Source of the DNA: Escherichia coli | Lineage (GTDB): Bacteria > Pseudomonadota > Gammaproteobacteria > Enterobacterales > Enterobacteriaceae | Direction: 5' to 3' (one strand) | DNA: 64,000 nt | Assembly (NCBI RefSeq): GCF_024502345.1 | Contig: NZ_JALDNN010000001.1 | Shown here: one piece after another, positions 17,633 through 18,570 of the stretch | Layout: each line of letters starts with the position of its first letter | Position numbering within the stretch: position 1 is the stretch's first letter | Notes under the pieces: generated by a model | Database searches by the model: none | The model's input: only the letters and a program-made list of their open reading frames with translations | Told to the model about the DNA's origin: nothing | Translations under genes and position numbers: made by a program

Positions 17633-17872
17633 TTAACTATCTCCTGTAATAAATTTCATCATGCAAATGAGGTGTGCCCTCCTTAAATTATCAATATCGT
17701 AAATTCCGCCACTATATTCAATCGCAACACGATGATCCATGTGGAATTTTTTAACGATTTCTTTAGTGCCATAATGCCAACCTTCAAGTGGTGCTTTTGC
17801 GATTAATCCTTGTTTTATACGTGTTTGATTACCGCTTGAAAACTGCGCTATCAACTCCGGATACTGACTCAC
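17633..17872 (-). pseudogene. Orphan C-terminal fragment of HNH DNase toxin, duplicate copy B (no ATG; HNH motif degenerate)
   Basis: Homology to parent toxin begins abruptly at LWLEVSQ; first codon is GTG; IHH replaced by MDH and terminal TP..H....H lost by apparent 1-nt frameshift. Confidence 0.6.
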
Positions 17873-18039
17873 CTCCAGCCAAAGGGTATCGGTAAAAGCG
17901 GGAAAATGATAAAATAACCTAATGAGGCTTCAGTATTTTTACCTGTTTTTTAAGAGCAATCACATTATTATTTTATGTCATTAATATCATCGCATTAGCC
18001 AGATGCGATGATGTTCCATATATAGTTTTATTATCTACT

Positions 18040-18330
18040 TTATTTAGAGTCTTTAAACAAGGGTAACCCCTGTGAACGCCGCCATTCTTTGACAATTTTC
18101 AGGATGTTTTCAGGTTCATCATCTCCCTTCTTTGCAGGATAGTAGATAAGATCGCTCATCAACGGATGTTGTGTAATTCTGGTAAGATGTTCTTCTAGAT
18201 CATCCCAATATTTGTCAAGCTCTTCCCCTTTTAATTGAGCGTTATCCCCGGTTGGATTTGTAAACTCGCCAAGCAACTCAATGAATTCCCGCTCTGTGTA
18301 ATCTTCTATTTTATCTTTAAAATTATACAT
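18040..18330 (-). CDS. Orphan Im7/Im9-family DNase immunity protein (96 aa), duplicate copy A
   Basis: Identical to 17342..17632; Im9-like motifs. Confidence 0.8.
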   Translation of the reverse strand: MYNFKDKIEDYTEREFIELLGEFTNPTGDNAQLKGEELDKYWDDLEEHLTRITQHPLMSDLIYYPAKKGDDEPENILKIVKEWRRSQGLPLFKDSK

Positions 18331-18570
18331 TTAACTATCTCCTGTAATAAATTTCATCATGCAAATGAGGTGTGCCCTCCTTAAATTATCAATATCGTAA
18401 ATTCCGCCACTATATTCAATCGCAACACGATGATCCATGTGGAATTTTTTAACGATTTCTTTAGTGCCATAATGCCAACCTTCAAGTGGTGCTTTTGCGA
18501 TTAATCCTTGTTTTATACGTGTTTGATTACCGCTTGAAAACTGCGCTATCAACTCCGGATACTGACTCAC
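18331..18570 (-). pseudogene. Orphan C-terminal fragment of HNH DNase toxin, duplicate copy A
   Basis: Identical to 17633..17872. Confidence 0.6.

Follow-up and report, generated by a model that had tools for sequence, protein, structure and literature searches.

Why intact immunity genes should stand beside toxin gene fragments that look dead is the question raised by an island of ~5 kb in an Escherichia coli contig (NZ_JALDNN010000001.1, assembly GCF_024502345.1), of which a stretch of 64,000 nucleotides (nt), here called the window, was analyzed and its cassettes compared with those of 27 other E. coli assemblies. The island encodes a full-length effector in which a colicin-type DNase is fused to Hcp, an immunity gene directly behind it, and three further cassettes that each combine a 3' fragment of a DNase gene with an immunity gene. 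A first-pass annotation of two of these cassettes had proposed that their DNase tails are catalytically dead and that immunity is retained while the toxin remnants decay. The observation was confirmed, and the biology behind it is ordinary and already known; the overall interpretation, that immunity is kept while the toxin decays, is partly supported. The fragments lack the 5' part of the nuclease domain and carry further lesions that recur in many E. coli genomes, and we consider it probable that the effector, a colicin-type DNase fused to Hcp, is followed here by an orphan toxin/immunity array, with cassettes that recombine, remnants that drift and immunity genes that can be expressed and are protective.

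All genes of the island lie on the minus strand, between pdhR (15430-16227, minus strand) and aroP (21384-22757, plus strand), and the three cassettes downstream of the first immunity gene share one layout (a ~158-nt spacer, a 3' DNase fragment and an immunity gene):

19025..20806, minus strand: full-length effector with a type A C-terminus, 593 amino acids (aa), with Pfam matches T6SS_HCP (28-139), Pyocin_S (309-450) and Col-Pyo_DNase (460-591).
18738..19022, minus strand: Im-A (94 aa), which lies immediately behind the effector as its immunity gene; an open reading frame (ORF), with PF01320 on the equivalent gene in related loci.
18331..18579, minus strand: orphan DNase remnant of D type, copy 2, with the junction TGGCTGGAGG at 18579, an Asp codon at 18433-18435 and a 1-nt deletion at ~18377/18378.
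18040..18330, minus strand: Im-D copy 2, 96 aa, an intact ORF with an AGGAGA ribosome-binding site inside the last codons of the remnant.
17882..18039, minus strand: inter-cassette spacer, with equivalents at 18580-18737 and 17185-17341, ~158 nt each.
17633..17881, minus strand: orphan DNase remnant of D type, copy 1, with an Asp codon at 17735-17737 and a 1-nt deletion at ~17679/17680.
17342..17632, minus strand: Im-D copy 1, 96 aa, an intact ORF whose protein is identical to that of copy 2.
16939..17184, minus strand: third orphan remnant, d0, with HIYHSV and a TTA-to-TAA stop at 16987-16989.
16650..16940, minus strand: Im-C pseudogene, with a 7-nt deletion at ~16916-16922.

The two D remnants were read as minus-strand ORFs at 17633-17872 and 18331-18570, and both translations end in ...KKFHMDHRVAIEYSGGIYDIDNLRRAHLICMMKFITGDS, where the parent effector gene ends in ...KKFQIHHRVAIEYGGSVYDIDNLRIVTPRLHDEIHYRR. 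The remnants contain ...KKFHMDHRV...DNLRRAHLICMMKFITGDS and the parent ...KKFQIHHRV...DNLRIVTPRLHDEIHYRR; the first HNH histidine pair is thus changed from QIHH to HMDH in both. Alignment of the DNA revealed one base missing at the same place in the two remnants (AGGA-GGGC against CGAATTGTT in the parent), which shifts the frame before the final TP..H....H, and the alternative frame of the D remnant still reads EGTPHLHDEIYYRR up to a stop codon; in copy 1 the ancestral tail GTPHLHDEIYYRR, again followed by a stop, is readable at 17637-17678. The altered histidine pair, the frameshift, the ancestral tail in another frame and the full-length adjacent immunity ORFs had all been pointed out in the first-pass annotation, and all were found as described. 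The two D cassettes form 698-bp tandem units with only six base differences, all of them in the spacer or the immunity-gene 3' end, and this clustering at one end is consistent with a recent unequal crossover.

Parent and orphans are homologous from exactly TGGCTGGAGGTGAGTCAG onward, with unrelated sequence upstream of that point, and the junction codon aligns with Trp58 of the colicin E9 DNase. The orphans therefore lack E9 residues 1-57 of the 134-residue domain (43%), in addition to the Pyocin_S and Hcp parts. The sole in-frame start in the D remnant is a GTG that directly abuts GGAG, and no start codon with a spaced ribosome-binding site was found, so that poor or no translation of the remnant is expected. 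In E9, His102 and His127 are constant metal ligands and His103 is the general base; the altered first histidine of the D remnant corresponds to His102 (Asp in the window, Tyr elsewhere), while the frameshift eliminates His127 and His131, the latter already a Tyr in the ancestral frame. Truncation at Trp58, replacement of His102 and loss of His127 and His131 together mean that the tails cannot act as nucleases, in line with the earlier proposal, and the missing 5' part is the more basic defect, with the His102 change and the frameshift secondary to it. Substitutions were not significantly enriched at the catalytic histidines (2 of the 4 key His among 15 changes in 80 residues, p=0.16).

The lesions are widespread. 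The same 1-nt deletion, together with Tyr or Asp at the first His, was present in all 33 D cassettes examined (those of the 27 other assemblies and the two of the window), and a 116-nt probe spanning the frameshift and the immunity start matched 1051 of 5426 complete E. coli genomes, the identity being >=99% in 966. The locus as a whole is present in 1058 of the 5426 (about one fifth), D cassettes at >=99% identity occur in 845 genomes, and 378 contigs have a record of the D remnant's exact 79-aa product. Asp at the first His is confined to the window and its closest relative, FDAARGOS_943; all other D cassettes have TAT (Tyr), which makes Asp a derivative of Tyr through TAT to GAT, and the d0 remnants of the window and the other assemblies all have Tyr at this position. 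Full-length genes and intact type A orphans of the 27 loci keep HH, as do the full-length DNase-bearing homologs listed from Enterobacteriaceae with the exception of P0112 (QH); Tyr or Asp was seen in none of these homologs. The lesions of the D remnants are therefore real, rather than sequencing errors or products of chance, and the sequencing error that the first-pass annotation had named as fatal to its claim is excluded for the frameshift.

The parent gene, in contrast, encodes a full member of the family. Its HNH residues HH, N and H...H are all intact, and the equivalents of His102, His103, Asn118, His127 and His131 (E9 numbering) are all found in it, as expected of a complete HNH DNase domain (PF21431), whereas the orphan ORFs 17633-17872 and 18331-18570 are fragments of this family and not members of it. 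Its last 108 residues align with pyocin AP41 (E=1e-27) and with residues 31-132 of the colicin E9 DNase (E=3e-26), with the HNH motif in register. An N-terminal Hcp domain and a C-terminal toxin domain are joined in the 593-aa ORF, and the cognate immunity gene lies directly downstream, Im-A starting 2 nt past the effector stop; the gene thus has these two marks of an Hcp-ET effector. The best matches of Im-D to solved structures were the AP41 immunity protein (2e-19) and Im7 (2e-18), with end-to-end alignment and the helix III motif DLIYYP kept. Im-D also has the other marks of the Im7/Im9 family PF01320 (~85-97 aa, a DYTE.EF helix, a variable helix II and D-x-I-Y/F-Y-P in helix III), and a precomputed PF01320 match exists on an identical protein. 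For related loci, PF21431 is precomputed on remnants of 79 aa and 62 aa, and PF01320 on the immunity genes.

The array contains a third orphan, which was absent from the earlier annotation. The d0 remnant reads HIYHSV and then, after DN, runs into a TAA stop, beyond which RIVTSRLHDEIHYRR is still in frame up to its own stop codon. Its DNA identity is 87-88% to types A and D and only 72% to type C, although it stands beside an Im-C gene, which makes the cassette a mosaic. The remnants are thus unreliable records of original toxin partners and cannot be taken simply as what is left of the toxin that went with each neighboring immunity gene. In the window Im-C has itself lost 7 nt from a tandem AAAATAT AAAATAT, so that the frame shifts after 8 codons and a 78-aa internal ORF (16650-16886) is left. 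The deletion is lacking in 1027 of 1028 complete genomes and is shared by one draft genome (L009).

Comparison of the locus between strains revealed three types of array:

Array type A: A+Im-A, D+Im-D, d0+Im-C, in the window, UTI89, APEC O18 and SMS-3-5.
Array type B: B+Im-A, D+Im-D, d0+Im-C, D+Im-D, in strain CU568-3 (O25:H4) and the majority of the other genomes that have the locus.
Array type C: C+Im-C, A (intact)+Im-A, D+Im-D, in Nissle, CFT073 and NGF1.

In Nissle the type A orphan retains QIHH and the full tail and shares 98% DNA identity with the expressed C-terminus of the window; in Nissle and CFT073 the Im-A gene behind the intact type A orphan (97 aa) is 95% identical in DNA to Im-A of the window. 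Judged by these identities, the same type A cassette sits in the orphan or the expressed position depending on the strain, as predicted by recombination at the conserved junction. The relation is reciprocal: window-type Im-C shows 93-95% DNA identity to the immunity gene that is cognate to the live toxin of type C (Nissle/CFT073-type), and Nissle-type arrays hold Im-A, which matches the window-type toxin. Orphan modules of type A/Im-A and Im-C hence match main pairs of other strains, whereas the D cassettes have no such match in the 5426 genomes. Arrays range from 2 to 4 cassettes, and recombination in the array is frequent and ongoing, as seen from the 698-bp tandem duplication, a shortened array (L028), the A-type tail on one D remnant (P0001) and two immunity 3'-end haplotypes. 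In the shortened array (L028, strain APEC 16-1068, 2835-3376) the sole orphan is a recombinant d0 remnant with no stop and HIYH retained.

Type B toxins (L002, L006, L007, L008, L012, L013 and L015) have a very different exosite region, SEINQLRISQGFTPFAPDEGHYIGPKETL, and the Im-A gene that follows them is 98% identical in DNA to Im-A after type A; either Im-A would be broadly specific, or another immunity gene of the array would cover type B. Complete type B arrays usually have a fourth cassette with Im-D E37V. In one of these loci (L012, 5543-8291) a beta-lactamase gene and a transposase are inserted between the array and pdhR. Just past aroP, the window has two plus-strand genes (468 aa and 316 aa, at 22916-25272); in UTI89 ampE directly abuts aroP, and on another contig (L019) a gene with MFS_2 and MFS_1 Pfam matches adjoins it.

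By gene order and sequence, the island is the pdhR-aroP island of Hcp-ET3-4/ETI3-4 in the uropathogenic E. coli strain UTI89, where the counterpart of the effector gene has the RefSeq name tssD. Both occupy the aroP-pdhR site, encode Hcp, Pyocin_S and a colicin DNase followed by immunity genes, and have the same array type, and UTI89 shares Im-A (WP_000471928.1) with the closest relative of the window (L001), the Im-A sequence of the window being the same. According to a review (PMC6730261), which also notes orphan immunity genes in E. coli, the three immunity genes downstream of UTI89_C0121 (Hcp-ET3-4) were reported to neutralize the toxin DNase (Ma et al., 2017, Virulence 8:1189); the review also describes activity of the UTI89 orthologue of the effector. 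The window differs from UTI89 in its extra tandem D cassette, in Asp rather than Tyr at His102 and in the broken Im-C. Compared with the UTI89 description, the immunity genes are here resolved into three distinct types (68-73% DNA identity), each preceded by a toxin remnant.

The island also has the defining features of orphan arrays, namely 5'-truncated fragments that begin at a conserved junction (TGGCTGGAGG in the parent and all three orphans), no initiation signals, complete immunity genes and a position downstream of a full pair. In this it resembles the orphan cdiA-CT/cdiI and rhs-CT/rhsI modules of contact-dependent inhibition (CDI) and Rhs systems, which likewise form arrays downstream of a full pair, comprise fragments that start at a conserved junction without initiation signals together with complete immunity genes, match main pairs of other strains (as type A/Im-A and Im-C do here), and were proposed to serve as an immunity repertoire and toxin reservoir (Poole et al., 2011, PMC3150448). 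In contrast to the CDI/Rhs orphans, the junction in the window lies inside the nuclease domain (E9 Trp58), so that an orphan is never a whole toxin, and the carrier is Hcp, from type VI secretion systems (T6SS), rather than CdiA or Rhs; the tested CDI orphans were active toxins (PMC3150448), whereas lesions have disabled the D and d0 remnants. In the T6SS orphan immunity arrays of Vibrio cholerae, too, an incoming pair displaces the effector, the old immunity gene is kept, and orphans match the pairs of other strains (Kirchberger et al., 2017, PMC5361080), but the effector families and the delivery adaptor differ, and the E. coli island still has sizeable pieces of effector genes, which have been shuffled from cassette to cassette. 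The colicin E2/E7/E8/E9 and pyocin S2/AP41 pairs belong to the same DNase and immunity families, with aligned HNH residues, but are delivered by receptor-mediated uptake rather than by Hcp and the T6SS, and the island is chromosomal and arrayed and has no lysis gene. Some Col plasmids carry extra immunity genes or 5'-truncated colicin genes, as does ColE9-J with the E5 imm.

The explanation that we favor, an orphan array whose immunity genes remain useful, would accommodate the observed anatomy, lesions, population spread, cassette switching and mosaicism as follows. Each cassette consists of a spacer, a partial DNase domain (its 3' 57%, which starts at the conserved WLEVSQ.PELIAQF junction and takes in the immunity-binding exosite and the HNH motif) and a complete gene of the Im7/Im9 family. 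Homologous recombination would act at two conserved stretches, the junction on one side and the immunity-gene 3' end with the spacer on the other, so that an incoming C-terminus with its immunity gene would enter the full-length gene and the previous pair would be displaced downstream as a headless orphan. Unequal crossing-over would duplicate or delete cassettes, the 698-bp duplication of the window being one case. Headless remnants would be neither secreted nor folded as a nuclease and would hence drift, by changes such as His102 to Tyr and then to Asp, the 1-nt deletion, His131 to Tyr and the stop codon, although their last codons would be kept because the immunity gene's ribosome-binding site lies within them. 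The immunity genes, in turn, would remain open to expression and would protect the cell from its resident toxin, by cross-reactivity or by dosage, as well as from the Hcp-DNase alleles that other E. coli lineages fire. Expression of the orphan immunity genes and their selective benefit are the most conjectural elements of this explanation.

The state of the immunity genes across strains supports their retention, which is plausible and backed by the literature. All 33 copies of Im-D have an open frame, as have 21 of the 23 Im-C genes whose sequence continues across the deletion site, with broken copies only in the window and L009 (a 24th gene, L015, is cut by a contig end, has a 78-aa ORF called there and was left out of the count); the adjacent remnants, of similar length, have accumulated two to four disabling changes each. 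In the shared 3' block of the immunity genes, 10 synonymous differences were found against 1 non-synonymous difference. The immunity gene has its ribosome-binding site, AGGAGA, within the remnant's last codons, which would explain why at least the remnant tail persists. On a Logan contig from outside E. coli (L020, 2509-2938), all that remains of a toxin gene ahead of the second immunity gene is its final ~40 nt (..LLHDGIHYRR and a stop), AGGAGA included, and this orphan represents a more advanced stage of remnant loss. In the O25:H4 strain CU568-3 (L006, NZ_CP082775.1, 1532-4147) an IS66-family element splits the tssD toxin gene, and all four downstream immunity genes are intact.

Signs of selection in the sequences themselves were equivocal. 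The first-pass annotation had looked to the ratio of non-synonymous to synonymous rates (dN/dS) in immunity genes and toxin fragments, and a nominal contrast is indeed present in the polymorphism within E. coli, with 10 non-synonymous changes (one of them a new stop) to 2 synonymous in the D remnant and 7 to 11 in Im-D (Fisher p=0.026). However, the contrast (p from 0.015 to 0.026) is driven by one linked 3' conversion tract, and the Im-D core outside the linked 3' block has 5 non-synonymous changes to 1 synonymous; the polymorphism thus hints weakly at purifying selection on Im-D. A number of further results also weigh against the favored explanation. Seven protein variants were counted for Im-D and seven for the D remnant, and a scan for promoter-like and terminator-like matches in the array returned none above chance. 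The broken Im-C shows that retention is not absolute, with one of the three orphan immunity genes of this array lost. No T6SS cluster was found within the 64-kb window, so that the machinery that would fire the toxin is not visible there. A chimeric DNA probe for a full-length D-type toxin produced only two-piece joins in the 5426 complete E. coli genomes, and the nearest relative of Im-D behind a live toxin is distant and lies on a contig from outside E. coli. Finally, the Tyr codon and 17 sites are common to D and d0 against type A, yet the two are separated by dS 0.385 and dN 0.081 (dN/dS 0.21), which simple decay from one dead ancestor does not predict. Recombination and the period for which the genes were functional both confound such pairwise dN/dS values between cassette types. 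This pattern most likely stems from gene conversion between neighboring cassettes or from independent C-to-T changes, and with low probability from constraint that still acts on the fragments. Of the earlier proposal, the decay of the remnants and the open immunity frames accordingly stand, and resistance to competitors is supported in part, by the match of Im-C and Im-A to live toxins, whereas selection on Im-D is conjectural, no live D toxin was found in the 5426 genomes, and Im-C is broken in this strain.

In related searches, a protein query with a repaired D-type C-terminus found short fragments only and no full-length carrier, with HMYH variants and intact type A orphans among the matches, and an Im-D search of contigs from one genome per species returned no related loci. 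We also considered Im-D as the true cognate of the resident toxin, the exosite of the parent resembling that of the D remnant, and rejected it since Im-A follows type A both as parent and as intact orphan. Within the spacer, a hairpin at ~17986-18012 with a 10-bp stem (AUCAUCGCAU...AUGCGAUGAU) has no T-run; equivalents occur in the other spacers, and the whole spacer folds no better than shuffled sequence (z = -0.97). A promoter-like TTTAAA-16-GATAAT at the end of the upstream immunity gene is not above chance expectation.

Among the alternatives, the one that survives best, and that we regard as possible but less probable than the favored explanation, is that the extra immunity genes, duplicated Im-D included, mainly neutralize the cell's own type A DNase by cross-reactive binding. 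The colicin DNase immunity proteins (Im2/7/8/9) are known to cross-bind non-cognate DNases, and only four residues in the exosite region distinguish the D remnant from type A. The duplication of Im-D in the window is in keeping with a dosage effect, as is the statement, in the review cited above, that all immunity duplications of UTI89_C0121 contribute to neutralization. Against self-protection, a dedicated Im-A always stands beside type A, whether parent or orphan; the near-identity of window-type Im-C to the cognate of a different live toxin fits protection from non-self; and the window lineage tolerates the loss of Im-C.

It is rather unlikely, in our assessment, that remnants and orphan immunity genes are both unselected hitch-hikers whose immunity ORFs stay open because they are short and little time has elapsed. 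The near-identity of the D cassettes across genomes would leave little decay time sampled, and the polymorphism of the Im-D core, the loss of Im-C in the window lineage and L009 and the lack of a live D-type toxin in the complete genomes would all be expected of such leftovers. Against this stand the contrast between open immunity genes and neighboring remnants of similar length with several disabling changes, the excess of synonymous differences in the shared 3' block, the match of Im-C and Im-A to live toxins of other lineages, and the persistence of immunity genes where IS66 has destroyed the toxin, and the review credits all three UTI89 copies with neutralization.

A further proposal, that the disarmed fragments are maintained as safe homology arms for cassette switching or as small peptides that bind immunity proteins and so adjust how much of them there is or how stable they are, is improbable; it would suit the Tyr/Asp-His remnants in that they keep the whole immunity-binding exosite (E9 ~72-98) and in that two cassette types with the Tyr allele in common still diverge with dN/dS of about 0.2. 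An assembly or sequencing artefact behind the frameshift and the duplicated cassette has very little left to recommend it: near-identical tandem repeats are a classic site of misassembly and the D-D tandem was found in no complete genome of the collection, but the recurrence of the deletion and of the 79-aa product across assemblies, genomes and contigs has already refuted it for the lesions, and the six unit differences at one end are as for a real unequal crossover.

As an instance of an orphan array with decaying toxins, the island adds little, since such arrays are established for CDI, Rhs and T6SS and the locus has already been studied in UTI89. The new details concern its variation: cassettes switch between orphan and expressed positions in clinically important lineages (UTI89, CFT073, Nissle and O25:H4 strains such as CU568-3), these lineages carry each other's immunity genes, the d0 mosaic stands beside an Im-C gene that is broken in the window, and no live D toxin was detected in E. 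coli. With Im-C lost, this strain is predicted to be vulnerable to the Hcp-DNase of type C that Nissle/CFT073-type strains carry, a directly testable prediction that bears on the competition between probiotic and pathogen.

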